DNA of 64,000 bases from Candidatus Aldehydirespiratoraceae bacterium. Its GTDB lineage: Bacteria > Actinomycetota > Acidimicrobiia > Acidimicrobiales > Aldehydirespiratoraceae. The stretch is taken from contig OZ241886.1 of assembly GCA_965203375.1 (NCBI GenBank), positions 2,431,249 through 2,495,248 on the forward strand, read 5' to 3'. The notes under the pieces are model-generated. The model did not search any database, was not told where the DNA came from, and was given only the letters and a program-made list of their open reading frames with translations. This document shows, in pieces, positions 5,433 to 64,000 of the stretch. The position numbers were made by a program, and so were the translations under genes. Each line of letters starts with the position of its first letter. Position 1 is the first letter of the stretch.

Positions 5433-5464
5433 TCCGCCTCCGTCATCGAAGGGACCCAAGCCCC

Positions 5465-9076: not shown

Positions 9077-9097
9077 CCCCGTTCAGCCCCCCTCCCC

Positions 9098-9153
9098 CGG
9101 GTTTTCTGAGCAAAAATCGTCGCTATACGCCAACTATTTGCTCAGAAAAACAG
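9098..9153. terminator. long AT-rich inverted repeat, putative bidirectional terminator between convergent genes
   Basis: GTTTTCTGAGCAAA ... TTTGCTCAGAAAAAC perfect 14-bp stems (extended imperfectly by CCCCTCCCCC / GAGGGGG), in the only AT-rich patch locally. Confidence 0.4.
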
Positions 9154-9162
9154 AAGAGGGGG

Positions 9163-9894: not shown

Positions 9895-9971
9895 CGTCGA
9901 TTCTCTCCTGCCGGGCAAAGCTAACGGGCCCGGAGCCCGATCAGTTCCCCTCGATGCGGCGAGGGCCGAAC

Positions 9972-12884: not shown

Positions 12885-12885
12885 G

Positions 12886-13518: not shown

Positions 13519-13766
13519 GAGCTGGTCGAGGTTGCCTCCGCCCCGCCGCCGCTTGTCCGGCCGGCGGGTCCTGTCACGGGCGCGGATTTCGCCGCGGAGG
13601 CGGCGAAATCCTTGCCCCCGTGCCACCCCCCGGCCTGGCGGATCGCCCGCGGGGGATTCGCCCTCCTGGAGCTGCTGGCCCTCTGGGAGCGGCTGGTCTT
13701 CCGTCGGCGGCTGGCCTTCTGGGAGTGGCTGATCCAGCGGTGAAGAGCCTTGTGAGGGAGGGGAGC

Positions 13767-14498
13767 TCACGGGGAGAAGTTGATCCAGCTCTGGGCTGTG
13801 GCCTCGTCGCCGAACAGCTCCAGTTCGCTCACCGGCACCCGGCCCCACATGGCCAGGCACAGGGCACCGCCGGGGCCGCGCAGGGCAGCGTCGCCTTTGG
13901 CGTGAACGTGCTCGACCGAGACGGCTCCGCCCTCGCTGGTCAGCATCCACTCCCCGGGGCCGTCGGTCCGGTGCAGGTGCAGCGAGCCGGCGGGCAGGAC
14001 CCGACCCCGGGCCAGCATGGCCGGCGCCAGCACCTCGAACAGCTCGTCGATGCCGTCTGCGCCCTGATCGCCGTCGATGGCGAAGTCACGCCCGGCCGCG
14101 GCCTCGGCGTCCCAGCGGTGTACGGCCGTCTCGTGCCACAGGCGCCGGAACCAGAACGCGGCGTCGCGCCGGGCCGTCCAAGTCCACACCGCCTCGGCCG
14201 GGTCGATACCGCCGAGAGCGTCCAACAGCGCATCGAGGGCAGCAGAAGCGTACCCCATCAGAGCACCTTCGTCTGAGGCGTCAGGCGGGTTGGGAAGCTC
14301 CGAGTCCGACACCATCTCAGTGGCCCGCCGGGACATGACGACAGCGACCCGATTGTGTATCCGACCCATGTGCGCCACCAAGTCCCCGACCGTCCAGTCG
14401 CCGCAGGCGGCCACCGGCGCGTCGAGGTTGCCCCGGGCCGCCACCAGCAGCCCTCGGCCGTCGGCGGCGATGCGGCCGATCATGTCACGCTCGTTCAT
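13767..14498 (-). CDS. maleylpyruvate-isomerase-like / mycothiol-dependent enzyme family protein (DinB/YfiT fold)
   Basis: N-terminal GDWTVGDLVAHMG...H motif characteristic of the TIGR03083 family. Confidence 0.6.
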   Translation of the reverse strand: MNERDMIGRIAADGRGLLVAARGNLDAPVAACGDWTVGDLVAHMGRIHNRVAVVMSRRATEMVSDSELPNPPDASDEGALMGYASAALDALLDALGGIDPAEAVWTWTARRDAAFWFRRLWHETAVHRWDAEAAAGRDFAIDGDQGADGIDELFEVLAPAMLARGRVLPAGSLHLHRTDGPGEWMLTSEGGAVSVEHVHAKGDAALRGPGGALCLAMWGRVPVSELELFGDEATAQSWINFSP

Positions 14499-14628
14499 AC
14501 TGAAAGGGTAAGCCGATCTCGCCTAGTTCAACCGAGTCGCGGAAAGCTCAATCCCGATCGGCCCAGAGTGGTCGCCAAAACGGCGCAGACCCAGCGTGCC
14601 GCGGTCGAAGTCGGCCTACCTCTCGCGC

Positions 14629-17037: not shown

Positions 17038-17052
17038 TGATCTCCTACCTCA

Positions 17053-19500: not shown

Positions 19501-19541
19501 TCCCCTACCTCACTGCCTTCCCCATAGGCCAGGTCCGGCTC

Positions 19542-20078
19542 TCAACTCAGACGGTCGCGGAGTTGTGCCACCAAGTGGCGCAGATCCTGCGCGCATCGGT
19601 CGAAGTCGGCCTGCTCCCCGGCACCCGGGTCGGCCACCTCCTCCCACGGCTCGGGCCGGACCCCGGCCAAGTCCAGCGCCGCGACCCGCTCCGCCAGCGT
19701 TGAAGGGCGGGCCGGCTCGGGTCGGGGCAGGTCCCGGGCCAGCCTCCGCAGCGATCCGACGACGGCCGCCGCAGCCGGGAAACGGGATCGAATCCACGAT
19801 AGGTGGGCCGGCTCCATGACCGCGATGAGGTCGGCGCCAGCCTCGCCATCCGAGAACTGCCGGGACCGGTGGCCGGGGTCGGCCAAGCCGCAGCCGGCCA
19901 GAGCCGTCCGGGTCCTCACCCCCATGGGCTGGCCCTCCACCACATGGGTGCCGGCGCTTAGCACCTCCAGATCCGGCGCCAGGGCCCGCAGCATGGCCGC
20001 GGCCATGACCGAGCGGGCCGCGTTGCCGGTGCAGACGAAGCACACCACCGGCCTCTCCGGGGCCGAATCCGGGCTCAC
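19542..20078 (-). CDS. low-molecular-weight phosphatase family protein (LMW-PTP/ArsC-like)
   Basis: P-loop VCFVCTGNAARS (CX4-AR-S); 41 bp upstream of paralog B on the same strand. Confidence 0.75.
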   Translation of the reverse strand: MSPDSAPERPVVCFVCTGNAARSVMAAAMLRALAPDLEVLSAGTHVVEGQPMGVRTRTALAGCGLADPGHRSRQFSDGEAGADLIAVMEPAHLSWIRSRFPAAAAVVGSLRRLARDLPRPEPARPSTLAERVAALDLAGVRPEPWEEVADPGAGEQADFDRCAQDLRHLVAQLRDRLS

Positions 20079-20138
20079 CGCGGAAGCCGTCCTAACGGGG
20101 CCGAGCCCGCGGGCATCGACGTCGGGGCCGGACCGGAC

Positions 20139-34468: not shown

Positions 34469-34617
34469 CCAGAGGTTGTTTCGGCGACGGGCTCGGCCGC
34501 CGACTCGCAGCTCGACCGCAGTCTCCTCGTGTCCGACCCACAGTGTCCGCCGAGTGGTGGGCTTTGCGGTAGCCGCAGGGGTCCGCCCCGAGTGGGCCAT
34601 CGGCGAGGTGTACGCTG

Positions 34618-35844
34618 GTGACAATGGGGGGAGGAGCCATCGGTGCCCAGATCCGGGGGCTGAGGGAGGCTGTGGGTTGCGAGCGATCGGCTCTGGCTGA
34701 GGCGCTGGGGCTCGATCCCGCCGAGATGGCGGAGATGGAGTTCGGCCGCCGGGCTGTCCGGGCGGAGGATGTCGCGGCCGCTGCTGAGTTCTTGGGCGTC
34801 TCACAACTGGCGATCCTGCAGCCGGGGTCGCTGCTCGGACGGCTCGCGGTGGCTGCCCGCACGAACGGTCACGGTGAACCGGACCGGGGGGCGGTGATGC
34901 GCCTGACGGCTCTGGCGGAACTGAGCCATGTGCTGACCCAAGGCGGCCACCCCCCTCCTCTTGCCCCGTCCGGCACCGACGGGGCACCTGAGGGTAAGCC
35001 GGGCCAGTCGTGGCTGAGCCGCGCTCGCGACCTGGCCGAATGGGCCGTCGGGCAGTTCGGCTCAGGTTGGAGGCAGGGCCACCCGCTGCCCGATCTGGCC
35101 GAAGCCATAGAGGACAGCCTGAGCGTTGATGTGATGGTGGAGGGCCTCGGCGGCACCGGGGCGCCGCTAGGCGTTTCCATAACCGACGCGGATTTCCCCT
35201 TCATCATGGTCAACGCCGATCAGCCCACCCCTCGGGCGCTGTTCTCCCTGGCCCACGAGTTGGGCCACGTTTTGAGCCGAGACGGCTACGCGCTGCGAAT
35301 CGACAACCACTTTCGGGCGCCCAACGACAGCGAACGGGCAGCCAACGCCTTCGCCGCCAGCCTGCTGATGCCCGAGGACGACGTGCGCCGCACCGTCGCC
35401 CAGCACGGTCGCACTGCCGAGTCTTTGGCCCGGATGCTCATTGACTTCGGTGTGAGCTATGAGTCGCTCATCTACCGGTTGCACAATCTGAGACTCATCA
35501 ACGCCAACGGCCGAGACCGTCTCAAAGCCGTGGGCTGGGCTGGCCTCATGAACGCCGTCAACGACGCCGGTGTCACCAAAGCGTTGCTCTCTGCTCGGGG
35601 CACTCGACCGGCGCGACGGCCTCCCATCCTGCTGGCGAGGCGATGTCTGCGCGGAGCGCTGGACGGAACGGTGAGCGCGGCCCCGCTGGCAAGGCTGCTC
35701 AACGCCGACATCGACGAAATAATCGACAAGATCGACTCGATAGGACCTGAATCCGCTGCCGCGATCAACGATAACTACTCGTCGCCACCCGATCCTGACG
35801 ATGTCGCCCACTCGGCTTTAGACGACGATCCCTTAGCCGTGTAG
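34618..35844 (+). CDS. XRE-family HTH fused to ImmA/IrrE-family zinc metallopeptidase
   Basis: HTH region IRGLREAVGCERSALAEALGL...; HEXXH as LAHELGHVL. Confidence 0.8.
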   Translation: MTMGGGAIGAQIRGLREAVGCERSALAEALGLDPAEMAEMEFGRRAVRAEDVAAAAEFLGVSQLAILQPGSLLGRLAVAARTNGHGEPDRGAVMRLTALAELSHVLTQGGHPPPLAPSGTDGAPEGKPGQSWLSRARDLAEWAVGQFGSGWRQGHPLPDLAEAIEDSLSVDVMVEGLGGTGAPLGVSITDADFPFIMVNADQPTPRALFSLAHELGHVLSRDGYALRIDNHFRAPNDSERAANAFAASLLMPEDDVRRTVAQHGRTAESLARMLIDFGVSYESLIYRLHNLRLINANGRDRLKAVGWAGLMNAVNDAGVTKALLSARGTRPARRPPILLARRCLRGALDGTVSAAPLARLLNADIDEIIDKIDSIGPESAAAINDNYSSPPDPDDVAHSALDDDPLAV

Positions 35845-35860
35845 GCCCGATCGGGCTTCG

Positions 35861-36424
35861 GTGGCGACGATGAAACCGGTGCTGCACGACGCGGTCACCT
35901 TGCGCCACTTTGCCGCTGTATCTAGAATCGATATTCTAGAAGCCCGGCACGGACAACGGCCGCCGCCTCTGTGGGCAGAAGCCGTGCATGAAGAAATACG
36001 ATCTGGCGTGGAAGCGGGCAACGCATACTGTTCTGATGTGCTTGAAGCCTCATGGCTTGGGAACCCTGCGCCTGTGCAAGAAGCCGACTTAGAGCCTATC
36101 TTCTTCTTACAGGTGGGCATAAATCAAGGTATCTATCCTCCCGATATGAAGCGTAACCGAGGAGAGGCAGAAAGCATCTATTTTGCTGAAAGACACGACG
36201 GACAATTCGCCACTGACGACAACGCGGCTTACAAGTTCGCCTGTCGGCGGCCTTCACTCGGCCCTGGCAGAGTGATCGACTCCATCGACATCTTAAGAAC
36301 CGCCGTCGCCCTAGGAGAGATCACCGCGACTGACGCCTTCACCGTCGCTGAAAACATAGAAGCAGAAGGGCGATTCTTCCGACCAGAACATCGCATCCCC
36401 AGAAAACCCAGCTACTTCACCTAA
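35861..36424 (+). CDS. hypothetical protein, possible PIN-like nuclease partner of ImmA/IrrE (DUF4411-like)
   Basis: 17 bp downstream of the ImmA/IrrE gene; low GC; N-terminal VLHDAVTLRHF strand and later acidic residues are compatible with a PIN fold; fold assignment is inference. Confidence 0.5.
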   Translation: MATMKPVLHDAVTLRHFAAVSRIDILEARHGQRPPPLWAEAVHEEIRSGVEAGNAYCSDVLEASWLGNPAPVQEADLEPIFFLQVGINQGIYPPDMKRNRGEAESIYFAERHDGQFATDDNAAYKFACRRPSLGPGRVIDSIDILRTAVALGEITATDAFTVAENIEAEGRFFRPEHRIPRKPSYFT

Positions 36425-37377
36425 GAGCATGCGCGGATTGCTCAGGGGTTTGGGTTCCAGCGGTTGCGGTGGTTGATGAGTTTGGCGGTGAGGATGCAGG
36501 CGATGGCGAGGGCGAGTTGGGCTCGTCGGTGGTGGGGACGGCGGTCGGTGTTGCGTCGGAGTTGCCCGAAGTTCGACAGCCATGAGTTGGTGCGTTCGAT
36601 GCTCCAGCGCCGGCCGAGGGGCACGGGCCGGGGCCCGGCGGCGCCTGGGGAGCGTCTTTGGGGGCAGGCGACGTCGGCGATGCCCGCGTCGGCGCACAGG
36701 CGGCGCGCAGTGGCGCTGTCATAGCCGCGGTCTAGGTGCAGGGTCTCGATGCCCTGGAGCAGTCCCCGCCGGCCGGCGGCTCGCAGGGTGGGTTCCAGCA
36801 GGGTCAGGTCACAGCGGTTGGCGCCGTCGAGCGCGGCTACGGCCGGTATGCCCCAACGGTCGGTCAAAAGCGACCACTTGAACCCGAGTTTGCCCCTGTC
36901 AACAGGGCTTTTGCCGGTTCCTTCGCCTCCGCAGGGGGCCTTGTGGATTGACCCGTCGATGCAGGCTTCGGTCAGGTCCAGCCCCACGATGCGGTCATAG
37001 GCCTCGACGGCTTCGTCTTCGAGGTCCTCGAACACCCCCGCGGCGATCCATTCGTCGCGGCGGGCCCGCATGGTGGTGTCAGACACCCGGCCCCCCAACA
37101 GCTTCTCCGCGGTGACCCATGAGCAGCCGGTGACCAGCCGGGTGAGCATCCCCCAAAAACAGATCCGGTCCGGGATCCGCGGCCTGTGCCCCCGGGTTGA
37201 GGGTCTCTGTGCCCGGACCGGGACCCGGGACTTGATCGCGGCCCACACCGCATCCACCACCTCAGGAACCAACGCGCGCATGATGTAGCCGGCCTCCACG
37301 GTCGTCTTGTTGCTGACACCCCGACATACAAGCCGGGACAACCAGACGACCCGTGGATGGTCAATCCGCGCGCGCTC
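36425..37377. mobile_element. IS5-family insertion sequence (IS1031-like), intact
   Basis: 16-bp terminal inverted repeats GAGCATGCGCGGATTG / CAATCCGCGCGCGCTC with 14/16 matches; 3-bp TAA direct repeats at 36422-36424 and 37378-37380. Confidence 0.8.
36442..37281 (-). CDS. IS5-family DDE transposase
   Basis: HLDRGYDS and RWSIERTNSWL motifs; ~280 aa single ORF. Confidence 0.8.
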   Translation of the reverse strand: MRALVPEVVDAVWAAIKSRVPVRAQRPSTRGHRPRIPDRICFWGMLTRLVTGCSWVTAEKLLGGRVSDTTMRARRDEWIAAGVFEDLEDEAVEAYDRIVGLDLTEACIDGSIHKAPCGGEGTGKSPVDRGKLGFKWSLLTDRWGIPAVAALDGANRCDLTLLEPTLRAAGRRGLLQGIETLHLDRGYDSATARRLCADAGIADVACPQRRSPGAAGPRPVPLGRRWSIERTNSWLSNFGQLRRNTDRRPHHRRAQLALAIACILTAKLINHRNRWNPNP

Positions 37378-37752
37378 TAAGCCGGGCGACATCGTGCTGC
37401 CGCAGAAGGCGGAAGCAGTAGCCGTGGATCGTGCCCACGAACAGGCCCCCGATCCGTGAGATGGCCACCTCGGTGCTTGACAGCGGCCAGTGCGTCGCCC
37501 TCCAGGGTTGGCACGTCCATCCGCTCATTGTGCCGGGAGGATGCTCTACCCGCCGCAGCCTCAAAGATTTTTCCGAACGGGCGTTGTGACTGTCACAGGG
37601 GTCTGATACATTGTCGCTACCGGTCGTGGAACCTCGCAGGCGGAATCGTCAGCGGGTTCCGGCGCTTCCCCGGACCGGTGAAATCGCCAGCGCAGGCCGG
37701 CCCCAGGACCGACCCGGCTCCTTCGGGAGTTGGGCTTGCGAGGAAGCGCAAC

Positions 37753-39090
37753 ATGTTCGAAGCATTCAAGACCTTCATCGACACACTGAACGGCTCCGAT
37801 GTGGGGGCCTTGGACCGGGCCGGGCTGGACGAAGCCGCCGGCTGGACCAAGCGGGCCCGCTCGGCCCTCGACGCCTACGAAGCCCGGCTGCTGACCGCCG
37901 CCAACCGGGCCTTCGACGGCGGCGCGGCCGGCGCCGAACTGATGCGAACCGCCGCCGGATGCTCCCAGCGCGAGGCCCGCCGCCGGGCCCGCCGAGCCGA
38001 AACCCTGGCCGACATGCCCGCCGTGGCCCAAGCCCTGTCGGATGGCGCCATCACCGCCGAACACGCCGACGCGTTGGTGAAGGCCGCCGAGGCCACCTCG
38101 ACAGCGGCGGTGGACGCCGACCCGTCCCTGCTGGCCAAGGCCGAGTCGCTGCCCGCCGATTTGGCCGCCCGAGAGGTCGCGGATTGGGCTCACCGCCGCC
38201 AATCCGAACAAGACCGCGAAGCCAAGCTCCGCCGCCAGCGGGCGCTGCGCAGCCACCGAACCTGGATCGACGCCGACGGCATGTTCAACACCAGAGGCCG
38301 CTTCGACCCCGTCACCGGCGCCAGCATCCGAGCCGTCATCGACGACACCGCCAACCGCCTCTACCGAACCGACGGAGGCCGAGACGGCGGCAACAAAATC
38401 CGCACCTGGGACCAGCGCAACGCCGACGCCCTAGCCGCCGCCCTAGGAGTGATCCCCACCCCCGTGACAGGACCCGCCGGCCGGGACAACCCGCAACCCG
38501 CCAGCCGAGATGAACACCAACTTGCCATCACGAACCGGCACGGCCCCAGCCTGCGCAACCAGATCCTCGTCATCGCCCACACCGACGCCATCACCGGCGC
38601 CGACCCCGACGCCCCCTGCGAAATCCCCGGAACCGGCCCCATACCCCGCTCTGAACTCGAACGGCTTGCCTGCGAGTCGGAATTGTTCGGAATCCTCTTC
38701 GACGGCCGCGGCCTGCCCCTATGGCACGGACGACGAACCCGAACCGTCACCCCCCAGCAATGGCGAACCCTGGTAGCCCGAGACCGCGGCTGCGTCCTCT
38801 GCGGCACCAACCCCTCCTACTGCCACGCCCACCACATCGTGCCATGGACCGCCCCCGCCGAAGGCCCCACCGACATCGACAACCTCGTGCTGGTCTGCAA
38901 CCGGCACCACCACCACATCCACCAACACCACCTCACCCTCACCCGCCACCCCGACGGCCACTGGACAACGGCCGACTCCAGCCACCGAAAACCCGCCCAC
39001 AGCAACCACCACAACAACGGCACGAGACCGGCTAGCCGCGACCACACTCCGGCAGCCAAGCCGCCAACCGGTATCAGAGCCGGACCATGA
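37753..39090 (+). CDS. DUF222 + HNH endonuclease (REP13E12-family-like)
   Basis: N-terminal DUF222-like region; C-terminal HNH (CVLCGTNPSYCHAHHIVPW...DNLVLVCNRHH). Confidence 0.8.
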   Translation: MFEAFKTFIDTLNGSDVGALDRAGLDEAAGWTKRARSALDAYEARLLTAANRAFDGGAAGAELMRTAAGCSQREARRRARRAETLADMPAVAQALSDGAITAEHADALVKAAEATSTAAVDADPSLLAKAESLPADLAAREVADWAHRRQSEQDREAKLRRQRALRSHRTWIDADGMFNTRGRFDPVTGASIRAVIDDTANRLYRTDGGRDGGNKIRTWDQRNADALAAALGVIPTPVTGPAGRDNPQPASRDEHQLAITNRHGPSLRNQILVIAHTDAITGADPDAPCEIPGTGPIPRSELERLACESELFGILFDGRGLPLWHGRRTRTVTPQQWRTLVARDRGCVLCGTNPSYCHAHHIVPWTAPAEGPTDIDNLVLVCNRHHHHIHQHHLTLTRHPDGHWTTADSSHRKPAHSNHHNNGTRPASRDHTPAAKPPTGIRAGP

Positions 39091-54938: not shown

Positions 54939-56206
54939 CCGGACCCGGCACCCTCAACCACGTCGACACCGAAGCCGACTCGGCTGCCCTTGACCGCGGA
55001 GACAGCAGGGCCGACCCGACCGCCTTCCACCGCGCCGACGCCGGAGCCGACCCGGTCGCCTTCGATCACGTCGACGTCGGGGGCAAGCGCAGCCCCCACA
55101 ACGCCAAGTGGTCCCAATACGGCCCCGACGTTCTGCCGGCCTGGGTGGCCGAGCACGACTTCCGCCAGCCCGACTCGGTGATAGAGGCCATGCGGGCCAC
55201 GATCGACCGGGGCGAGCTGGGCTATCACCGCCGCGACTCTGAGGTGGCCGAGGCCTTCGGGGGCTGGGCCCGGTCCCGCTACGGCTGGGACCCCGACCCG
55301 GCGCTGGCCGCGGTGTGCGTGGACGCCCTCCAGGGCGTCGTCGCCGCGGTCACCGCACTGGCCGGCCCCGGCGAGGGGGTGATCCTGACGCCGCCCGTCT
55401 ACCACGTGTTCTGGCAGATCTGCCCCACCTCGGGGCGGCGGCCGGTGGAGTGGCCGATGCGGCAAGGCCCCGGCGGATGGCGCCTCGACCCCGACGACCT
55501 CGAAGCGGTGGCCGCGGCCGACCCCGGCGCCAAGGTGCTGTTGCTGTCGCACCCCCAGAACCCCACCGGCCGGGTGGCCGACCGAGACACCCTGGCCCGC
55601 ATCGTCGAGGTGGCCCGCGATCGCGGCCTCTACGTCGTGTCCGACGAGATTCACGGCGACATGGTGTACCCCCCGGCCGAATTCGTGCCCATGCTGTCGC
55701 TGGACGGCGCCGCCGACCGGGTGATAACCGTGACCTCGCCGGCCAAGACCTTCGCCCTGTCGGGGCTGCGCTGCGCCCTAACCGTCTTCGGCTGCCCGGA
55801 GCTGCGCCGCCGGGTGATCGAGGCCCACCCTCCCCTGCTGCTGGGCCACGCCTCCCGGACGGGCATCGACGCCTCGGTGGCGGCCTGGACCGAGGGCGGG
55901 GCCTGGGCCGACCGGCTGCTCGACCAGCTCCGGGCGAACCGCGACCATCTGGCCCGGCGGCTGGCGGCCGAGGCCCCGGCGGTGCGGATGCACCTGCCGG
56001 AGTCGACGTTTCTGGCCTGGCTGGACGTGTCGGCCTGCGGCCTGGGCCACCGGCCCGCCGCCGCCCTGCTGGAGCGGGCCCGGGTGGCGCTGCTGGAGGG
56101 AACCGAGTTCGGGACCGGCGGCGAAGGCTGCGTGCGGCTCAACTTCGGGACGTCTGAGGCGCTGCTAGACGCCATAATAGACCGGCTCATCCCCCATCTG
56201 CGATGA
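54935..56206 (+). CDS. MalY/PatB-family PLP-dependent C-S lyase / aminotransferase
   Basis: FDHVDVGGKRSPHNAKW (PatB-type N-terminus), PLP-lysine context; start uncertain, GTG 54935 is the only nearby candidate. Confidence 0.75.
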   Translation: MTGPGTLNHVDTEADSAALDRGDSRADPTAFHRADAGADPVAFDHVDVGGKRSPHNAKWSQYGPDVLPAWVAEHDFRQPDSVIEAMRATIDRGELGYHRRDSEVAEAFGGWARSRYGWDPDPALAAVCVDALQGVVAAVTALAGPGEGVILTPPVYHVFWQICPTSGRRPVEWPMRQGPGGWRLDPDDLEAVAAADPGAKVLLLSHPQNPTGRVADRDTLARIVEVARDRGLYVVSDEIHGDMVYPPAEFVPMLSLDGAADRVITVTSPAKTFALSGLRCALTVFGCPELRRRVIEAHPPLLLGHASRTGIDASVAAWTEGGAWADRLLDQLRANRDHLARRLAAEAPAVRMHLPESTFLAWLDVSACGLGHRPAAALLERARVALLEGTEFGTGGEGCVRLNFGTSEALLDAIIDRLIPHLR

Positions 56207-58341
56207 CCGACCACCAGGGCCGTAGGTTCGAAATGCTCTTGCAGCGGTGTCCGTGGCTGGCTTGCGCGCTGTTTGTGGGAGTCGCGCTCGTCCATAACGA
56301 TACCCCCACCCCGCAGGATACAGTCTGGACCGCCCAAGCGACGACACCGGCCGAGACGACGGTGCAAGACTCGGCTAGATTATTAGGATCTATTGCCCCA
56401 GTTGAGGACGATCAAGGTTCGGATAAGGGCTCGATAGTTTTGTCATGGCCTAATCTTGGTGATACTTCAATCACTCATTATCAGTATAGATTCAGGAGTG
56501 CATCAAAGGCAGGGTACGGTCCGTGGATAGATGTTCCCTTCAACTATGAGACCACCACTGTAAATACCATCACCAACCTTAAAACGGATATGGCCTATCA
56601 TATACGATATCGAGCCTGCAGGCCGACCAAATGCGGAATTGCGAGAGTTAAATGGCATGTAAGAGCTTGCAACACGGGCGAATGTAAAGCTAAAAAGCTT
56701 CAAATAAGGGTTCCAGTGTTTCCGTCGGATGTTCCCCCTCCACCTGGTTTCTGGTTCTTAGACGATGACGGCAGTATCCACGAGGGCGCCATTGAGGCAC
56801 TCGCGGCCGTGGGCGTCGCCCGAGGGTGCCGATACGACCTCTATTGCCCCGATGAGGAGGTGACCCGCGGCCAGTTCGCCGCGCTATTGGCGCGGGCCTT
56901 TCCCGGCTTGGTCCCCGACGACGCCGACGACTTCTTCGGCGACGACGACGGCAGCGTCCACGAGGCCGCCGTCAACGGCCTCGCCGCTGCGGGGATCGCG
57001 AGCGGCTGCGGGCCGGGCCGTTACTGCCCCGCCGAACCGATGACCCGAGCCCAGATGGCGACACTGCTGGCCCGGGCCCTCCCCGGTTTGGCTTCCCCCG
57101 ACCGGGATCATTTCTCCGATGACGACGGGACCGTCCATGAGGTCGCCATCAACGCGTTGGCCGAAAACGGCATCGTCTCCGGCTGCGGACCGGGCCGGTA
57201 CTGCCCCGACGATCCGATGCGGCGCGATCAGGCGGCGACGCTGCTGGCCCGGGCACTGGACCTGAAGCCGACCCAGCCTGAGCCGAGCCCGTGGCGGCTC
57301 GAGCCGGTGGCCGACGGCATCGACGGCGGCCCCACCGACCTCCAAGCCCCAGACGGCGACGACCGCTTGTTCCTGGCAACCAAACAGGGGGCGATCCTCA
57401 TAATCGCCGACGGCGCCCTATTGACCGAACCGTTTCTTGACTTGACCAGCGAAGTCATGTCCGCGGGCGGCGAACAAGGTCTGCTCGGGATGGCATTCCA
57501 CCCCCACTACGACACCAGCTTCAGGTTCTATGTCTTTTATACCGACTTAGACGGCCATAGCCAAATATATGAGTACCGGACCGACCCCGAGAACCCGAAC
57601 CAGGCCGACGCTTCCACCGCCCGTCACATCATCACCATCGAACAGACCAACGCTATACATATGGGCGGACAGCTTCAATTCGGCGCTGACGGCTACCTAT
57701 ACATAGCCGTCGGTGACGACCTGCTCTCTAACAACGGACAGAACCCCAGAACAGCGCCGGGAACCATCCTCCGCATAGATATAGACGACGTCGACTCCTA
57801 CTCGATTCCTGCCGACAACCCCTTCGCCGACGGCCAAGAAGGTCTACCCGAAGTCTGGGCCTACGGGCTGCGTAACCCCTGGCGATTCAGCTTCGACGGC
57901 TCCAACATCTACATCGCTGATGTAGGGCATAATGAACGAGAGGAAATCAACATCGTCGACACCTCAAGGGGTGGAATAAACTACGGCTGGCCCATCGTGG
58001 GTGATACCCAATGCATCAACTCAAACTCGAACTGCGCCGGACTGTTCACCCCTCAAATCGAATACTACCGCAACGATGGGTTTGCCGTCATCGGCGGCTA
58101 CGTATATCGAGGCACCGCCATAGGTGAGATGACCGGCCGATACTTCTACTCCGACATCAGCGGCCGATGGATCCGCACCTTCGCCTACCAAGACGGCGAG
58201 ATCACCGAGCACTATGACTGGTCCCAGGCGATCGAAGATCTCGGGCAGGTGTGGTCATTCGGCAAAGACGGCCACGGAGAGCTCTACGTGCTGACCAGCG
58301 ACGCCGTCTACAAGATCGCCCCCGCTAGCCTCAACCCATGA
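56203..58341 (+). CDS. surface protein paralog 1: TM/signal + FN3 + 3 SLH-like repeats + PQQ-type soluble sugar dehydrogenase beta-propeller
   Basis: ATG overlaps aminotransferase stop (ATGA); SLH-like FSDDDGS.HE.AI..LA..GI..GC....YCP....TR.Q.A.LLARA x3; propeller motifs GLLGMAFHP, GGQLQFGADGYLY, GLRNPWRFSFD, GGINYGWP. Confidence 0.75.
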   Translation: MTDHQGRRFEMLLQRCPWLACALFVGVALVHNDTPTPQDTVWTAQATTPAETTVQDSARLLGSIAPVEDDQGSDKGSIVLSWPNLGDTSITHYQYRFRSASKAGYGPWIDVPFNYETTTVNTITNLKTDMAYHIRYRACRPTKCGIARVKWHVRACNTGECKAKKLQIRVPVFPSDVPPPPGFWFLDDDGSIHEGAIEALAAVGVARGCRYDLYCPDEEVTRGQFAALLARAFPGLVPDDADDFFGDDDGSVHEAAVNGLAAAGIASGCGPGRYCPAEPMTRAQMATLLARALPGLASPDRDHFSDDDGTVHEVAINALAENGIVSGCGPGRYCPDDPMRRDQAATLLARALDLKPTQPEPSPWRLEPVADGIDGGPTDLQAPDGDDRLFLATKQGAILIIADGALLTEPFLDLTSEVMSAGGEQGLLGMAFHPHYDTSFRFYVFYTDLDGHSQIYEYRTDPENPNQADASTARHIITIEQTNAIHMGGQLQFGADGYLYIAVGDDLLSNNGQNPRTAPGTILRIDIDDVDSYSIPADNPFADGQEGLPEVWAYGLRNPWRFSFDGSNIYIADVGHNEREEINIVDTSRGGINYGWPIVGDTQCINSNSNCAGLFTPQIEYYRNDGFAVIGGYVYRGTAIGEMTGRYFYSDISGRWIRTFAYQDGEITEHYDWSQAIEDLGQVWSFGKDGHGELYVLTSDAVYKIAPASLNP

Positions 58342-60719
58342 CCTCCGATCGAACAGCCCACCCGTCTTGCACGCGCGTTGAAATCATGTGCATCGTTATC
58401 TGCTTCTTGATCTGTGCGCTAGTCGCCGGACTGTTACCACAAATGGTAATTCCCCGTACGGCTCATGCTCAGGCCGCGAACAATGCGGCGGTTCCAGGGG
58501 AACCGTGTGGGTTGTCGGCTGTGGGTAGGAACGGCTCGGGTTCTGGCGATGGTTCAATTGTCCTGTCATGGGATGATCCCGGCGACTCTTCAATCAATGG
58601 TTATCAGTACCGGCTGAGGACCCCTGATACGTCTGAAGAATACGGCTCGTGGATCGACATCCCTGGCAGCGGAGCCTCCACCACCGGCCACACCATCACC
58701 GGCCTTAACAACCACACGCGCTATAATGTGCGGCTGCGGGCTGGCAACACAGCCGGGTGGGGGGCCAGTCGGGTCTATTTTAGTGCTCGGACGACCACGG
58801 TTCCTGCCACCACTGCGACATATGTTCCAAGCCGGCCGGTCCTATTGGCCTCGTCTTTCTACGACGGCACCATTACCATTGCCTGGGATTGCCCGCGGAC
58901 GCAAGACCAAGTCCTCTGGTACCAATACCGATACAAGATCGGGCCCGGCATGTGGTCAGACTGGATTACATTGCCACCGACGGACCGCAGCCTTACCCTG
59001 GCCGTCCTGGACCGTGACACTCGGCACTACGTGGTTCTGCGAGCCGTCAACAGCGCGGGCTTCGGCAGCAGCATCTTAGCCTTTCCCCGGGTTCCCCCTC
59101 CACCTGGTTTTTGGTTCTCAGACGACGATGGGAGCATCCACGAGGGCGCTATTGAGGCCGTCGCCGCCGCGGGCGTCGCCCCGGGTTGCCAGCACAACCT
59201 CTATTGCCCTGCCGATTCGATGACCAGGGCCCAGTTCGCTTCCCTCTTGGTACGAGCCTTCCCCGATCTGATCCCCGAAGACGCCGAAAACTATTTCAGC
59301 GACGACGACGGGACCGTTGACGAGAGTGCCATCAACCGGCTGGCCGCCGCGGGGATAACCGCGGGCTGTGGGCCCCGGCGGTATTGCCCCGACGATTCGA
59401 TGACCCGGGCCCAGGCGGCGACGCTGCTGGCCCGGGCCCTCTCCGGCCTGGCTCCGCCCGACCGGGATCATTTCTCCGACGACGACGGGACCGTCCATGA
59501 GATCGCCATCAACGCGTTGGCCGAAAACGGCATCGTCTCCGACTGCGGGGCGGGCCGGTACTGCCCCGACGATCCGATGCGGCGCGACCAAGCGGCGACA
59601 CTGCTGGCCCGGGCCCTCAACCTGGAGCCGACCCAGCCGGCACCGAGCCCCTGGCAACTCGAGTCGGTGGCCGACGGCATCGACGGCGGCCCCACCGACC
59701 TTCAGGCCCCAGCCAGCGACGACCGCTTGTTCCTGGCAACCAAACAGGGGGCGATCCGCATAATCGCCGACGGCGCCTTATTGCTCGAACCGCTCCTCGA
59801 TTTGACCGGCAAAGTCAATTCCGAGACCGTCGAAGAAGGCCTGCTCGGGCTGGCCTTCCACCCCCACTACGCCACCAACCACAAGTTCTATGTCTTTTAT
59901 ACCGACTTAGACGGTCACAATCAGGTCTACGAGTACAGGACCGACCCCTCCGACCCCAACCGGGCCGACTCCTCCACCGCCCGCCACATCATCACCTTCA
60001 CCCAGGAATGCCTCTGGCACAATGGCGGACAGCTCCAATTCGGTGCCGACGGCTACCTATACATAGCCGTCGGCGACGGAGCATGCTTCAATCTTGGCAA
60101 CAAGCCAGAAACTTTGGACCAAACCCCCCACAACATCCTAGGGACCATCGTTCGCATAGATGTAGACAATGGTGACCCCTACTCGATTCCTGCCGATAAC
60201 CCCTTCGCCGACGGCCAAGATGGCCTGCCAGAAGTGTGGGCCTACGGACTGCGCAACCCCTGGAGATTCAGCTTCGACGGCCCCAACATTTACATCGCTG
60301 ATGTAGGGCACCACGAACGGGAGGAGATCAACATCGCCGACGTCTCAAGGGGCGGAATAAACTACGGCTGGCCCATCGTGGGTGATACCCAATGCATCAA
60401 CTCGAACTCGAACTGCGCCGGACTGTTCACCCCTCAAATCGAATACTATCGCAACGATGGGTTCGTCGTCATCGGCGGCTACGTATATCGAGGAACTGCC
60501 ATAGGTGAGATGGTCGGCCGATACTTCTACGCCGACTACACCGGATGGATACGCACCTTCGCCTACCAAGACGGCGAGATCACCGAGCACTATGACTGGT
60601 CCCAGGCGATCGAAGATCTCGGGCAGGTGTGGTCATTCGGCAAAGACGGCCACGGGGAGCTCTACGTGCTGACCAGCGACGCCGTCTACAAGATCGCCCC
60701 CACTAGCCTCAACCCATGA
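58338..60719 (+). CDS. surface protein paralog 2: signal peptide + 2 FN3 + 3 SLH-like + PQQ-type dehydrogenase propeller
   Basis: ATGA overlap with paralog 1 stop; signal peptide ending AHAQA; same domain order. Confidence 0.75.
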   Translation: MTSDRTAHPSCTRVEIMCIVICFLICALVAGLLPQMVIPRTAHAQAANNAAVPGEPCGLSAVGRNGSGSGDGSIVLSWDDPGDSSINGYQYRLRTPDTSEEYGSWIDIPGSGASTTGHTITGLNNHTRYNVRLRAGNTAGWGASRVYFSARTTTVPATTATYVPSRPVLLASSFYDGTITIAWDCPRTQDQVLWYQYRYKIGPGMWSDWITLPPTDRSLTLAVLDRDTRHYVVLRAVNSAGFGSSILAFPRVPPPPGFWFSDDDGSIHEGAIEAVAAAGVAPGCQHNLYCPADSMTRAQFASLLVRAFPDLIPEDAENYFSDDDGTVDESAINRLAAAGITAGCGPRRYCPDDSMTRAQAATLLARALSGLAPPDRDHFSDDDGTVHEIAINALAENGIVSDCGAGRYCPDDPMRRDQAATLLARALNLEPTQPAPSPWQLESVADGIDGGPTDLQAPASDDRLFLATKQGAIRIIADGALLLEPLLDLTGKVNSETVEEGLLGLAFHPHYATNHKFYVFYTDLDGHNQVYEYRTDPSDPNRADSSTARHIITFTQECLWHNGGQLQFGADGYLYIAVGDGACFNLGNKPETLDQTPHNILGTIVRIDVDNGDPYSIPADNPFADGQDGLPEVWAYGLRNPWRFSFDGPNIYIADVGHHEREEINIADVSRGGINYGWPIVGDTQCINSNSNCAGLFTPQIEYYRNDGFVVIGGYVYRGTAIGEMVGRYFYADYTGWIRTFAYQDGEITEHYDWSQAIEDLGQVWSFGKDGHGELYVLTSDAVYKIAPTSLNP

Positions 60720-60751
60720 CCTCCGATCAACCTGCTCATCCCCCACCTGCA

Positions 60752-62868
60752 ATGACCGACCACCAGAGCCGTAAATTCAAAATGCTCTTGCTGAGATGTC
60801 CGTGGCTGACTTGCGCACTGTTTGCGGGAATCGCGTTCGTCCATAACAATACCCCCCCCCGCAGGATGCGGTCCAGACCGCTCAAGCGGCGACACCGTCC
60901 AAGACGATGACACAAGATTCGGCTAAATTAGTGGGATCAGTTGCCTCAGTTGAGGATGATCAAGGTTCGAATAAGGGCTCGATAGTTTTGTCATGGTCTA
61001 ATCCTGGTAATCCTTCAATCACTCATTATCAGTATCAATTCAGAAGTGCATCAGAGGTAGGATACGGTCCGTGGATTGATATTCCTGACAGCAGAGCGTC
61101 CACTACTGAATATACCATCACCGGCCTTAGAACCAATGCAATATATAATGTAAGACTTAGAGCCTGTAAGAGATCTGTATGTTGGGATTTCAGTAGTTTA
61201 TGGCATGTAAGAGTCTGTGAAATGACCGAATCGACCAAATGTGAAGTTACTGCGATAGGCTACCCAGTGATCGCGCCAACTGTTCCCCCTCCACCTGGTT
61301 TCTGGTTCTCAGACGATGACGGCAGCCGCCATGAGGGGGCCATTGAAGCTCTCGCGGCCGCGAGAATCGCATCTGGGTGCGGACGGCACCTTTATTGCCC
61401 CGCTGAGGAGACGACCCGGGGCCAGTTCGCCTCGCTGTTGGCGCGGGCCTTCCCCGACTTGGTCCCCGACTACACCGGAGACTTCTTCGGCGACGACAAC
61501 GGCAGCGTCCACGAGGCCGACATCAACAGGCTGGCCGCAGTGGAGATCGCGGCCGGCTGCGGGCCGAGCCGGTTCTGCCCCGACGACCCGATACGGCGCG
61601 ACCAAGCGGCGACGCTGCTGGCCCGGGCCCTCCCCGGCCTGGCTCCGCCCGAACGGGATCACTTCTCCGACGACGACGGCAGCATCCACGAGATCGCCGT
61701 CAACGCCATGGCCGAAAACGGCATCCTCGCCGGCTGCGGGCCGAGCCGGTTCTGCCCCGACGACCCGATACGGCGCGACCAGGCCGCGACCCTGCTCGCC
61801 CGGGTCCTCAACCTGAATCGGGCCGAACCTCAACTAAGCCTGTGGCGGCTCGAGCTAGTGGCCGACGGGATTGTCGGCGGCGTCACCGACCTGCAGGCCC
61901 CCATCGGCGACGACCGGGCATTTCTGGCCACCAGACGAGGGATGATCCGTGTGATGGCCGACGGCGCCCTTTTACCCGGGCCATTCCTCGACTTGACCAG
62001 TAAAATCTCAGGGGGCCTGTTCGGGCTGGCCTTCCACCCCCGCTACGACACCAACGGCAAGTTCTACGTCTTCTATATTGCCTTAGACGGCAACATCCGA
62101 ATATACGAGTACCGGGCCGACTCCGAGAACCCCAACCGGGCCGATCCTTCGACCGCCCGCCACATCGTCACCATAGAGCGAGACACAAGTACTCACCACG
62201 GAGGGCAGCTCCAATTCGGTCCTGATGGCTACCTATACATCGGCATCGGTGACAACAACAACCCCGAAAGCAGTCAGAATTTGCAAACCGCGCATGGGAC
62301 CATCCTCCGCATAGATGTAGACAACGGTGAACCCTACTCCATCCCTGCCGATAACCCCTTCGCCGACGGCCAAGATGGCCTACCTGAAGTGTGGGCCTAC
62401 GGGCTGCGCCATCCTTGGCGATTCAGCTTCGACGGCCCCAATATCTACATCGCCGACGTGGGAGATGTCCACATTGAGGAGATCAACATCGCCAAGGCTT
62501 CCCAGGGTGGAATAAACTACGGCTCGCCGGTCATGGACGGCTCCATATGCGTCAGTCCAACCTCAAACTGCGCCGGGCTGTTCACTCCTCAAATCGAATA
62601 CTACCATGCCCAGGGTTTTGCCGTCATCGGCGGCTACGTATACCGAGGCACTGCCTTACCTGAAATGGTCGGCCGATACTTCTACTCCGACTACACCGGC
62701 GCATGGATCCGCACATTCCTCTACAACGACGACGGCGAGGTGACAGAGCACTACGACTGGTCCTCAGCAGTCGAAAACGTCGCGCAGATGCAGTCATTCG
62801 GCAAAGACGGCCACGGAGAGCTCTACGTGCTGACCGGCTACGCCGTCTACAAGATCGTCCCCCGCTAG
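60752..62868 (+). pseudogene. surface protein paralog 3, interrupted by a frameshift at a C9 homopolymer (60852-60860)
   Basis: N-terminal TM segment (60752-60860) and body (ATG 60907 onward) lie in different frames; a C10 tract would restore a full-length reading frame homologous to paralog 1. Confidence 0.6.
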
Positions 62869-62877
62869 CCTCAGCCC

Positions 62878-64000
62878 ATGATCTCCGATCGCCAGGCCCA
62901 CCCGTCCTGCAATCGCCTTCAAATGGGTCGGGGCATAGAAATCCCGGCCGGTTCGGCCAGCATTAGGTCCTGGCCAGCCTCTGGTATTGTCAAGATAGCC
63001 CACGGTGCATGCGATGATCGGGAACGGCGCAAGACCCATATGCCTCGTTTGACTACTTTACTGGTCTGTGCGCTGATCGCTGGACTATTGTCACAAGTGA
63101 CAACTCCCGTAGTAGTCCATGCTCAGGCGGCGAGCAATGCGGCGATTCCAAGAGAACCGTGCATGGTGTCTGCAACCACTGAAGACGTAGTTTCACGGCC
63201 AAGACGACCGGTCCTATTGGCCTCGTCTTTCTACAGCGGCACCATTACTGTCGCATGGGACTGCCCGCGGGCGCAAGACCAAGTCCTCTGGTACCAATAC
63301 CGCTACAAGATCGGGCCTGGCATGTCGTCAGGCTGGATTAAATTGCCACCGACGGCTCGTAGCCTGACCCTGACCGTCCTGGACCGTGACACCCGGCACT
63401 ACGTGGTTCTGCGAGCCGTCAACAGCGCGGGTCCAGGCAACAGTGTCTTAGCCTACCCCCGGGTTCCCCCTCCACCTGGTTTCTGGTTCTCCGACGACGG
63501 CGGGAGCGTCTACGAGGGCGCTATTGAGGCCGTCGCCGCCGCGGGCATCGCCCCCGGGTGCCGACACAACCTCTATTGCCCCGCCGATCCGATGACCAGA
63601 GGCCAGTTCGCTTCCCTCCTGGTACGAGCCTTCCCCGACCTGATCCCCGACGACGCCGAAAACTACTTCTCCGACGACAACGGGACCGTCCACGAGATCG
63701 CCATCAACCGGCTGGCCTCCGCGGGTATAACCGCGGGCTGCAAGCCGGGCCGGTACTGCCCCGCCGATCCGATGCGGCGCGACCAAGCGGCGACGCTGCT
63801 GGCCCGGGCCCTCCCCGGCCTGATTCCGCCCAACGGGGATCATTTCTCCGACGACGACGGGACCGTCCACGAGATCGCCATCAACGTGTTGGCTGAAAAC
63901 GGCATCGTCTCCGGCTGCGGGCCGGGCCGGTACTGCCCCGCCGATCCGATGCGGCGCGATCAGGCGGCGGCGCTGCTGGCCCGGGCCCTCAACCTGGAGA
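62878..64000 (+). CDS. surface protein paralog 4 (paralog-2-like, one FN3), 3'-partial at window edge
   Basis: no stop in frame from 62878 to the window end; alternative start ATG 63040 (MPRLTTLLVCALIAGLL...AQAA signal peptide). Confidence 0.6.
   Translation, partial: MISDRQAHPSCNRLQMGRGIEIPAGSASIRSWPASGIVKIAHGACDDRERRKTHMPRLTTLLVCALIAGLLSQVTTPVVVHAQAASNAAIPREPCMVSATTEDVVSRPRRPVLLASSFYSGTITVAWDCPRAQDQVLWYQYRYKIGPGMSSGWIKLPPTARSLTLTVLDRDTRHYVVLRAVNSAGPGNSVLAYPRVPPPPGFWFSDDGGSVYEGAIEAVAAAGIAPGCRHNLYCPADPMTRGQFASLLVRAFPDLIPDDAENYFSDDNGTVHEIAINRLASAGITAGCKPGRYCPADPMRRDQAATLLARALPGLIPPNGDHFSDDDGTVHEIAINVLAENGIVSGCGPGRYCPADPMRRDQAAALLARALNLE

Follow-up and report, generated by a model that had tools for sequence, protein, structure and literature searches.

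The SLH proteins of Firmicutes, among them B. anthracis Sap (3PYW), P. alvei SpaA (6CWI) and G. stearothermophilus SbsB (4AQ1), carry a tandem triplet of ~55-aa repeats that folds as a pseudo-trimer, and the features of the SLH ligand site include the Arg of a TRAE motif and the second Gly of a GIIxG motif (PMC6081394). Soluble PQQ dehydrogenases, such as E. coli YliI/Asd (2G8S), A. calcoaceticus sGDH (1C9U) and the enzymes of P. aerophilum (3A9G) and S. coelicolor (3DAS), are extracytoplasmic six-bladed propellers of family PF07995. HHIP (2WFT, 3HO3, 7PGM) is a eukaryotic (vertebrate) protein and not an enzyme; its architecture includes EGF domains but neither SLH nor FN3, and a loop mediates its binding to Hedgehog. 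Lastly, M. tuberculosis provides an established actinobacterial case of homopolymer phase variation, at the 7C tract of glpK and at other tracts (PMC10334774).

Here, we analysed a 64-kb stretch of DNA (hereafter the window) from an uncultured member of the Acidimicrobiia, a group that is abundant, barely cultured and almost unstudied with regard to its cell surface. Four tandem paralogues at 56203–64000 (+ strand) all encode exported proteins, with an N-terminal signal peptide (assigned by eye only), then one or two FN3 domains and three SLH repeats, and at the C terminus a six-bladed beta-propeller of the GSDH/HHIP type. Below, we compare these proteins with the systems above, and describe the junctions between the copies and a poly-C tract behind the signal peptide.

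Results

Four tandem paralogues follow a C-S lyase gene

The array is preceded by a + strand gene (54971–56206) for a PatB/MalY-type PLP C-S lyase with the class I/II aminotransferase fold (PF00155, 3.9e-40; TIGR04350, 4.4e-92 and 309 bits, slightly below the cut-off of 340), the counterpart of the gene call at 8256–9491 in the sister locus L001. Its stop codon and the ATG of copy 1 share the letters ATGA at 56203–56206, just as the original prediction had stated. The array holds three complete + strand ORFs, 56203–58341 (712 aa), 58338–60719 (793 aa) and 60907–62868 (653 aa), and a fourth that stays open from 62878 to the window end.

Copy 1 (56203–58341, + strand) was delineated with Pfam domains and an AF2 model into a hydrophobic N-terminal signal/anchor, an FN3 domain (~56410–56700), three SLH repeats (~56743–57267) and the propeller (~57286–58326). 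Judged by its conservation, the overlapping ATG at 56203 is the start of copy 1: the frame from this codon is preserved in relatives by two compensating 1-nt indels. An internal ATG at 56233, at which L086 hinted, was rejected as the start; this codon is absent from close relatives, and L082 and L098 are without it while keeping the frame from 56203. Copy 2 (58338–60719, + strand) has, by its ORF and Pfam, a signal peptide, two FN3 domains, three SLH repeats and the propeller. Copy 3 spans 60716–62868 (+ strand), with a signal peptide that begins at ATG 60716 or 60752 and a body ORF open from 60907; in the window the two lie in different frames, split by a C9 tract at 60852–60860. Its stop codon (TAG, 62866–62868) comes 9 nt ahead of the next ATGA. 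Only the 5' part of copy 4 (63040–64000, + strand) is present, comprising a signal peptide, one FN3 domain and three SLH repeats before the window ends. The true start of this copy is ATG 63040, and the initial 165 nt of the called 'copy 4' are a decayed fragment of a class-III aminotransferase gene (hereafter AT3). In L001, the copy-4 propeller ends ~1085 nt past the window and the true AT3 lies directly 3'. Sister assemblies likewise have exactly four copies and then AT3, with a fifth paralogue ~6.5 kb downstream. The four consecutive paralogues that had been predicted are thus present as four copies, but the third is frameshifted in the window.

The copies are 70–84% identical to each other in protein sequence and vary in FN3 number; dN/dS values of 0.30–0.41 among them indicate that all four are under purifying selection. 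The predicted order of FN3, three SLH repeats and GSDH propeller agrees with Pfam: PF07995 scored above gathering (E = 1e-35 to 4e-41), and fn3 gave 2e-13, 6.5e-9 and 0.012, the last value being that of copy 1 and below the cut-off. We noted a conserved Cys in the signal peptide, but rejected it by eye as a lipoprotein lipobox, given that positions –1 to –3 are unsuitable. A promoter/terminator scan returned nothing above shuffled controls, with no terminators at the junctions. Elsewhere in the window, a GC-poor stretch lies at 14–20 kb; an rRNA operon was considered there and rejected, since Rfam, run over the entire window, matched no RNA family.

The nearest records belong to a syntenic uncultured Acidimicrobiales MAG whose PatB is 85% identical. 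We had expected the architecture to be unusual, and in this lineage it is not: 114 of the 120 best homologue clusters share SLH+GSDH, several copies occur on many contigs, and the combination is frequent in Acidimicrobiia metagenomes. Public gene calls for the family are systematically truncated and miss the signal peptide and FN3 because of the low GC and the poly-C tract, which matters for mining these proteins.

The SLH module carries a Cys pair in each repeat

All three complete copies passed the SLH model PF00395 (E = 6e-10 to 2e-14; 51.6, 53.5 and 39.3 bits for copies 1–3, where the cut-off is 20.8). In the AF2 model, every SLH repeat comprises two helices with pLDDT > 90. Foldseek aligned the module to the B. 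anthracis Sap trimer 3pyw (1.9e-8, TM 0.77, 170 columns), and phmmer aligned it to SbsB (6.8e-8) with all three repeats covered. From the model and these matches we infer that the three repeats fold as the usual pseudo-trimer.

As in Firmicutes, the Arg of the TRAE/TRAQ motif is kept in every repeat (R222, R282 and R341, in the forms TRGQ, TRAQ and RRDQ), and so is the second Gly of GIIxG (G208, G268 and G327); each of these residues is invariant or at least 90% conserved in 20–64 homologues. By contrast, the ligand-contacting Trp13 (HWA) is replaced by Glu (H-E) in all three repeats throughout the family. Each repeat also has a conserved Cys pair (GC-x4-6-[YF]CP), which probably forms a disulfide. 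Further differences from Firmicutes are the internal position of the module, between FN3 and the propeller, and the actinobacterial host.

In the related locus L003, a homologue adjoins genes for a CsaB-like pyruvyl transferase (PF04230, 8e-34) and GT2, and the same Cys-containing SLH module is fused to YkuD, M23, M15 and SpoIID. No CsaB-type pyruvyl transferase was found in the 64-kb window, and this genome's contigs were absent among the 120 matches listed in a search with the related CsaB.

The propeller resembles both HHIP and soluble PQQ dehydrogenases

The AF2 model of copy 1 averages a pLDDT of 83, and most of its SLH and propeller parts exceed 90. Its best Foldseek match was HHIP (2e-27, 27–29% identity), and phmmer against solved structures also ranked HHIP (6.6e-37, over the whole propeller) ahead of the best PQQ enzyme (6e-18). 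PQQ aldose/glucose dehydrogenases (2ism, 3a9g, 2g8s and 3das) were matched by Foldseek at 3e-21 to 2.6e-17, with TM-scores of 0.81–0.86 for Asd-type targets. The array proteins and HHIP have a C-terminal FGxDxxGExYxL blade in common, and both lack the PQQ-binding Arg pair.

The original prediction had assigned PQQ-dehydrogenase hallmarks to this domain, which was half correct. By hhalign against sGDH and YliI, H486 corresponds to the catalytic base His144 of sGDH, and R557/N558 to the quinone-polarising Arg228/Asn229; across the family H486 and R557 never vary, and at least 90% of 64 homologues retain N558. The motifs GLLGxAFHP, DGxLY and NYGWP are shared with the enzymes as well. Equivalents of the PQQ-carboxylate-binding Lys377 and Arg406/Arg408, however, are absent: 'galK' of YliI aligns to a variable S653 and 'RIRDV' to 'DLGQV', and the R-x-R-[DE]-V motif that occurs in all five solved bacterial enzymes is not found in the array propeller. 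Without the basic PQQ-carboxylate residues, PQQ, if used, must be bound differently. The NCBIfam PQQ model TIGR03606 scored 35–57 bits, far below its cut-off of 434.55. No pqq genes, cytochrome or other electron acceptor were found in the window or in neighbouring loci. Other differences from the soluble dehydrogenases are the fusion to FN3 and three SLH repeats and the multi-copy arrangement.

Identity between the paralogues is lowest (55–74%) in the loop after DGYLYIAVGD, which aligns to the Gln168 loop of sGDH. This divergence in loops aligned with the sGDH substrate pocket suggests that the array is probably a panel of specificities.

Junctions retain fragments of the flanking genes

The motif CCCATGAYCTCCGATC occurs exactly three times (58335, 60713 and 62875) against 0.16 expected by chance. 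It had been read as part of a stop/start overlap retained at every junction. It does occur at all three, but only two are true overlaps, copy 3 stopping 9 nt early; and rather than an intrinsic stop/start signal of the family, the motif is the 5' leader and first codons of the downstream AT3, copied with every unit.

Each junction holds a relic of AT3 on the + strand. The relic between copies 1 and 2 (58324–58374) was recognised by local alignment to the true AT3 5' end in L001 and consists of the leader and the first ~38 nt; the junction motif occupies 58335–58350 within it, and its ATG at 58338 is a possible start of copy 2. At the junction between copies 2 and 3 (60703–60751), the AT3 leader and first 13 nt (60703–60728) are followed by the last 22 nt of the lyase gene (60730–60751; ACCtGCTCATCCCCCAcCTGCaATGACC vs. 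ACCgGCTCATCCCCCAtCTGCgATGACC), so that the 3' flank of a unit is joined to the 5' flank. This arrangement is a typical tandem-duplication scar, and bears out the prediction that the array grew through copying of a unit into which the upstream gene's 3' end had been taken up. The relic ahead of copy 4 (62864–63031), identified by alignment to the true AT3, is a decayed stretch of ~170 nt that runs from the leader to about codon 69; it contains the junction motif at 62875–62890 and has a better-preserved counterpart in L096.

The copies have a mosaic identity profile, which indicates gene conversion. Syntenic relatives have zero, 1+1, two or four copies: L085 has an empty site with PatB and AT3 32 bp apart, and other copy numbers were found in L086, L093, L094, L096, L097 and L099. 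Read together, the junctions and the relatives show that a single cassette originally stood between the PatB-type lyase gene and AT3. It was then duplicated in tandem, each time taking along the AT3 start and on one occasion also the lyase 3' end. Later gene conversion and unequal crossing-over produced the mosaic copies and the range of zero to four copies among related genomes.

A poly-C tract behind the signal peptide varies in length

The C9 tract of copy 3 (60852–60860, + strand) has no equal in the 64-kb window, where other G/C homopolymers reach at most 7, and over 9 kb it accounts for the sole indel relative to L001. It is out of frame: the signal peptide is joined to the body only by C7, C10 or C13. 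In L001, L082 and L098 the tract is C10 and copy 3 is an intact ORF of 705 aa. By contrast, the poly-C of copy 1 is interrupted (CCCCCACCCC, 56303–56312), which fixes this copy in frame.

The same tract lies behind the signal peptide of many paralogues, with lengths of C9, C10 or C11. Of 14 uninterrupted tracts, seven were in frame and seven out of frame, and every out-of-frame copy had an intact body ORF of 560–690 codons. For the fifth paralogue, whose in-frame length is C10, the tract was C9 in L082 and L083 and C11 in L098, and it is the only indel in 2 kb between L082 and L098. Both in-frame and out-of-frame alleles are thus found among closely related genomes. A JGI metagenome scan for the pattern of signal peptide plus poly-C gave four unrelated matches and no further tract alleles.

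Changes in tract length between near-identical strains would switch copies in and out of frame, and suggest, as a still unproven reading, slipped-strand phase variation of the surface-protein repertoire. The out-of-frame copies could also be rescued by transcriptional slippage, or be early pseudogenes. The location of the tract is reminiscent of Neisseria opa, whose phase-variable repeats lie in the signal-peptide region. The likeness to such precedents, which include M. tuberculosis (PMC10334774), lies in a slippery tract within the 5' coding region of surface-protein paralogues, in the in-frame and out-of-frame alleles among near-identical strains, and in the interrupted and hence 'locked' tracts of some copies. 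The present case differs in that the tracts are longer (C9–C11) than those of M. tuberculosis and the host is an uncultured environmental bacterium.

Discussion

Our preferred explanation, which we hold to be rather likely, is that the locus is an array of propellers, probably tethered to the cell wall by their SLH module, that expanded by duplication in place and carries a poly-C switch. The propeller probably would oxidise sugars at the cell surface, or at least bind them.

As regards the origin of the array, repeats are prone to mis-assembly and the window ends within copy 4, so the four copies might have been an assembly artefact of a repeated gene. We give this virtually no credence: the copies are too dissimilar in protein sequence and unequal in FN3 number, and the same four genes, in identical order and with identical junctions, were recovered in L001, L082 (circular, 3.66 Mb) and L098. 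With the array reproduced in four independent assemblies and no collapse in the others, it is real, as predicted. It is also improbable that the array, instead of belonging to a resident operon, arrived recently as a foreign island. Such an import would account for the low GC (0.60 in the array vs. 0.73; GC3 of 0.70 vs. at least 0.9 in the flanks) and would fit the empty site in a syntenic relative; moreover, the array is 99.7% identical to L001 while its flanks are 95.6–98% identical, and this jump, with a breakpoint near 55010–55044, suggests a recent recombinational exchange. However, family members in related genomes are equally GC-poor relative to their flanks in four different chromosomal slots, which makes the composition an old family trait rather than a sign that this strain acquired the array recently; on that ground, a recent acquisition by this strain alone was rejected. 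No integrase, transposase or attachment repeats were seen flanking the array, and the duplication scars speak for expansion in place.

The other two parts of the preferred explanation, the role of the propeller and the switch, each face a stronger rival. It is somewhat doubtful, though far from implausible, that the propellers are HHIP-like, cofactor-free ligand-binding modules on the wall rather than redox enzymes, with the His and Arg-Asn as ancestral remnants and with roles as adhesins, glycan or metal binders, or phage decoys or receptors. HHIP being the top solved match in both sequence and structure, the missing PQQ-carboxylate Lys and Arg-x-Arg, the failure to find genes for PQQ synthesis or electron-transfer partners nearby, and a variable copy number with on/off tracts, typical of surface recognition proteins, all favour such modules. 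Yet HHIP itself has lost Arg228/Asn229 (His-Asp instead), whereas the array family keeps both as well as the catalytic His; GLLGxAFHP, HxGGQLxFG, RNPWR and NYGW are conserved, and in sGDH-type enzymes these motifs form the lining of the active-site face; and fungal AA12 enzymes depend on PQQ even though several of the canonical residues for binding it are missing from them (PMC4133262, PMC6881789). The array propellers, if PQQ is their cofactor, would need a different binding mode, as in those enzymes. As for the tracts, we take it as quite possible, if short of probable, that their differences reflect no switch, but miscalled homopolymers in metagenome assemblies or the neutral decay of redundant paralogues. 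Homopolymer length is the commonest assembly error; several out-of-frame tracts are one base off the in-frame length, the window genome, L001 and L082 appear, judging by contig names, to be long-read assemblies, and none of the three assemblies seen has the fifth paralogue in frame. Against this, C9 and C11 at the fifth paralogue differ by 2 nt between ~99% identical strains; scaffold assemblies of short-read style (L084, L086, L087 and L093) contain out-of-frame tracts too; the bodies of all out-of-frame copies are intact, which neutral decay would not preserve; and the tract is kept in many paralogues despite dS of 0.4–0.6.

Going beyond the in-place array with its poly-C switch, we tentatively put forward that the locus is a contingency system of wall-anchored HHIP-like propellers, varied by unequal crossing-over, gene conversion and poly-C slippage. 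Variation might then act on three levels, namely copy number (0–4 per slot), sequence and expression, presumably driven by pressure from phages or predators or by a changing sugar supply. The propellers of such a system might bind PQQ non-canonically, or no PQQ at all.

Because fragments of the flanking genes date each junction, the array is an unusually legible example of the birth and remodelling of a tandem array. Acidimicrobiia appear to rely on an SLH-type anchor in a Cys-stapled form, which serves a large paralogous family and, as seen in a relative, enzymes that remodel peptidoglycan. Should the poly-C tracts be real switches, a free-living, high-GC environmental bacterium would provide a case of contingency loci. 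If the wider contingency system holds true, homopolymer phase variation would reach beyond pathogens to free-living Acidimicrobiia, and the propellers would form an uncharacterised bacterial sister group to that of HHIP.

Four paralogues in tandem

The forward-strand array starting at 56203 consists, as the original prediction had it, of paralogous genes combining FN3, SLH and GSDH domains. The ORFs of copy 1 (56203–58341) and copy 2 (58338–60719) and the body ORF of copy 3 (60907–62868) are complete, and the copy 4 region is open from 62878 to the window end. Each complete ORF matched GSDH (PF07995, E 1e-35 to 4e-41) and SLH (PF00395, E 6e-10 to 2e-14, exceeding the gathering score) in Pfam, and all three SLH-like repeats passed the SLH model. 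Each likewise matched fn3, copy 1 falling under the cut-off. Collapse of the array on reassembly, raised beforehand as a sign of artefact, was not seen in other assemblies. The identical set of four genes was found in three sister assemblies, namely L001 (827-kb contig, 99.66% identity to 55010–64000), L082 (circular 3.66-Mb contig, 98.9%) and L098 (scaffold from a different sample, 98.9%), followed directly by AT3 (a class-III aminotransferase gene), adenine glycosylase, CopD and amidohydrolase, with a fifth SLH+GSDH paralogue ~6.5 kb beyond. Since the copies share 70–84% protein identity and differ in FN3 number, the array is neither a collapsed nor an inflated repeat, and an assembly artefact of that kind was ruled out. 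We also noted that identity to L001 rises at 55010–55044, inside the upstream lyase gene, from ~96% to 99.66% over the whole array, which looks like a recent recombination tract moving the array between strains.

In this window copy 3 is disrupted: the signal peptide, starting at ATG 60716 or 60752, is out of frame with the body, and a run of nine cytosines (C9, 60852–60860) lies between the two, where the homologous place in copy 1 reads CCCCCACCCC. The initial 165 nt of "copy 4" do not code for that protein, the real start being the ATG at 63040. Public gene calls of these proteins (541, 548 and 640 aa) are without the signal peptide and FN3; across the array and related loci such calls begin 100–170 codons late (e.g., 541 aa versus 712 aa), probably as a result of poly-C frameshifts and of 5' parts that are very poor in GC.

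The array is GC-poor relative to its flanks (0.60 versus 0.73; FN3 0.42–0.53), as is its GC3 (0.70 versus 0.9 or more). Family members in related genomes are all GC-poor as well; low GC is thus a trait of the whole family and no sign of recent import. A second GC-poor island (14629–19509, minus strand, ~0.50 versus 0.72) contains a tandem pair of paralogous ORFs, 802 and 815 aa long; in both, the N-terminal half is a multi-pass membrane region and the C-terminal half is repeated. Neither ORF had a significant Pfam or NCBIfam match, and the island may be another variable cell-envelope locus. The remainder of the window encodes ordinary metabolism and transport, plus one small mobile-element patch of slightly lower GC (34573–39090) with an HTH and IrrE/M78 regulator, an IS4/5-type transposase remnant (DUF4096/DDE) and a DUF222-HNH endonuclease.

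Origin of the array

The upstream gene encodes a PatB/MalY-type PLP C-S lyase (TIGR04350, 309 bits; cut-off 340), and its TGA overlaps the copy 1 ATG, as had been claimed. The predicted stop/start overlap at every junction held for the ends of copies 1 and 2, but copy 3 ends at a consensus TAG. The family-consensus C-terminus, ...KIVPR-TAG, closes copies 3 and 4. In copies 1 and 2 a single base immediately 5' of this stop has been lost, and they run four extra codons to the TGA of ATGA; the overlap is thus secondary and confined to two junctions.

The shared junction motif, CCCATGAYCTCCGATC, occurred exactly three times, once per junction, with 0.16 occurrences expected by chance. It is not intrinsic to the family: beyond copy 4 in L001 it runs on as ATGACCTCCCATCGCCCGGCCCACCCGTTCCTGCAC..., which is the AT3 start (MTSHRPAHPFLH), so that the motif represents the AT3 leader and start. 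Local alignment placed three AT3 fragments inside the window, at 58324–58374 (AT3 –13 to +38), 60703–60728 (–12 to +13) and, decayed, 62864–63031 (–13 to about +206). In the related locus L096 the matching junction remains translatable as PFLHAFACPAKPEADFVNIVRGRG...VVYDDAGKDY. The syntenic Acidimicrobiales genome L085, whose PatB is 85% identical, has no propeller gene, and 32 bp lie between its lyase gene and AT3; the bases right before the AT3 ATG (GGTAGCCTGCGCCCATGACC) match the terminal bases of every window unit (GCTAGCCTCAaCCCATGACC). The AT3 fragments and this empty site show that the array began as a single cassette flanked by the lyase gene and AT3. Every duplication carried the cassette plus the beginning of AT3, and duplication of a two-gene unit left the AT3 start abutting the lyase end at 60703–60751. 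The predicted copy of the lyase 3' end ahead of copy 3 is present and 22 nt long, and this scar confirms growth by duplication of a unit that took in the upstream gene's end, a proposal that we extend to the AT3 start.

Copy number varies accordingly among syntenic regions: none in L085, one on each side of AT3 in L086, two downstream of AT3 in L093, two upstream in L094, L096, L097 and L099, and four upstream in the window and its three sister assemblies. Propeller genes occupy an additional slot behind DUF5317, and L092 carries another pair between tgt and queA. The first gene of L096 and L097 fuses the copy 1 start to the copy 2 leader, the expected product of unequal crossing-over. Sliding identity across the window copies is mosaic, and this indicates gene conversion: the first SLH repeats group copies 1/3 and copies 2/4, the stretch running from SLH3 into the propeller is 90–93% identical among copies 1, 2 and 4, and at the 3' ends copies 1/2 share 92–96% and copies 3/4 87–94%. 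Pairwise dN/dS between copies was 0.30–0.41, which places all four bodies under purifying selection.

A poly-C tract behind the signal peptide

No other G/C homopolymer in the window is as long as the C9 at 60852 (runner-up, 7), and only C7, C10 or C13 could join the copy 3 signal peptide to its body. All three sister assemblies have C10 and an intact gene of 705 aa; over 9 kb, the window and L001 differ by no other indel than this tract. Many paralogues share the tract, immediately after the signal peptide's hydrophobic core. In the fifth paralogue, where C10 would be in frame, it is out of frame in L082 (19940, C9), L083 (19948, C9) and L098 (19920, C11); the downstream ORF is intact in each, and the tract is the sole indel in 2 kb between assemblies ~99% identical. 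Among related loci, L086 combines an out-of-frame C9 with an in-frame C10, L093 has two C11 tracts of which one is in frame and one is not, both C10 tracts of L094 are in frame (one in a copy 1 orthologue whose tract is uninterrupted), and L084 carries an out-of-frame C10 and two interrupted tracts. Overall, uninterrupted tracts were split evenly (7/14 in frame, 7/14 out of frame), and every out-of-frame copy kept an open body of 560–690 codons.

The pattern bears the signature of slipped-strand phase variation but does not prove it. Homopolymer-tract phase variation by this mechanism is documented in M. tuberculosis (PMC10334774, 10.1101/717272). The differences in tract length could instead be assembly error, of which homopolymers are a classic case, and transcriptional slippage could rescue expression of the out-of-frame copies. 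Elsewhere, a G8 run lies in the propeller-coding part of copy 4 (L001 17969, L082 13462; ~680 nt past the window end), and an unrelated C11 run lies in an apparently intergenic or short-ORF region of a 3.27-Mb Acidimicrobiales MAG (L002 15483), so long poly-C tracts may not be exclusive to the SLH+GSDH family.

SLH module and propeller

The SLH repeats align full-length to SbsB (6.8e-8) and Sap (3e-7), each is modelled as two helices with pLDDT above 90, and superposition of the module onto the Sap trimer gives a TM of 0.77. Ligand binding by SLH domains is defined by the TRAE Arg, the second Gly of GIIxG and a Trp (PMC6081394). The array module shares the fold, the Arg and the Gly (3/3 repeats) with Sap and SbsB, but has Glu in place of the Trp; a Cys pair, GC-x4-6-[YF]CP, is also conserved in every repeat. 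No csaB, pqq or cytochrome genes were found in the window, and a related CsaB used as query gave no match on this genome's contigs among the 120 hits listed. In L003, an Actinomycetota MAG with a 44% identical homologue, the SLH+GSDH gene adjoins GT2 genes and a CsaB-like pyruvyl transferase gene (PF04230, 8e-34), and the same Cys-containing module is fused to YkuD, M23, M15 and SpoIID enzymes, which suggests a general wall-targeting device in the lineage. The L003 cell-wall cluster spans 3559–20087, with the CsaB-like gene, two GT2 genes and SLH fusions to YkuD, GSDH, M23, M15+FG-GAP and SpoIID.

Human HHIP is the top solved relative of the propeller by sequence (6.6e-37), a far stronger match than the PQQ sugar dehydrogenases (3A9G 6e-18, 2G8S 9e-17, sGDH 4e-11), and Foldseek likewise favours HHIP. 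The predicted PQQ-dehydrogenase hallmarks were only partly borne out by profile alignments to sGDH and E. coli YliI. H486 (equivalent to sGDH His144) and R557 (Arg228) are invariant across the family, and N558 (Asn229) is found in at least 90% of 64 homologues. By contrast, the positions of the YliI "gaLK" Lys and of both Arg in "RIRDV" are taken by a non-conserved Ser and by Asp-Leu-Gly. R-x-R-[DE]-V is present in 5/5 solved bacterial enzymes. HHIP lacks both residue sets, which places the array family between PQQ enzymes and HHIP. PQQ dependence survives loss of canonical binding residues in fungal AA12 dehydrogenases (PMC4133262, PMC6881789). Given this precedent and the intermediate residue set, the propeller is most likely a surface sugar dehydrogenase, in near balance with a cofactor-free binding role. 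The most divergent segment among paralogues, after DGYLYIAVGD, lines up with the Gln168 substrate loop of sGDH; that equivalent to Gln76 is variable too and missing from copy 3. Both would fit divergent specificities.

Place of the family

An SLH-anchored propeller family had been considered unusual; it is in fact numerous in public data, with 853 of the scored candidates reaching E ≤ 1e-10 and the SLH+GSDH architecture common to 114/120 best clusters. Some of these proteins carry the JGI label "glucose/arabinose dehydrogenase". Our literature search found no paper connecting SLH with the GSDH dehydrogenase family or with Acidimicrobiia. SLH-anchored surface protein, GSDH/HHIP-type propeller and tandem duplication are each known kinds; further interest lies in the poly-C tracts, which may be phase-variable, and in the absence of PQQ-binding residues.
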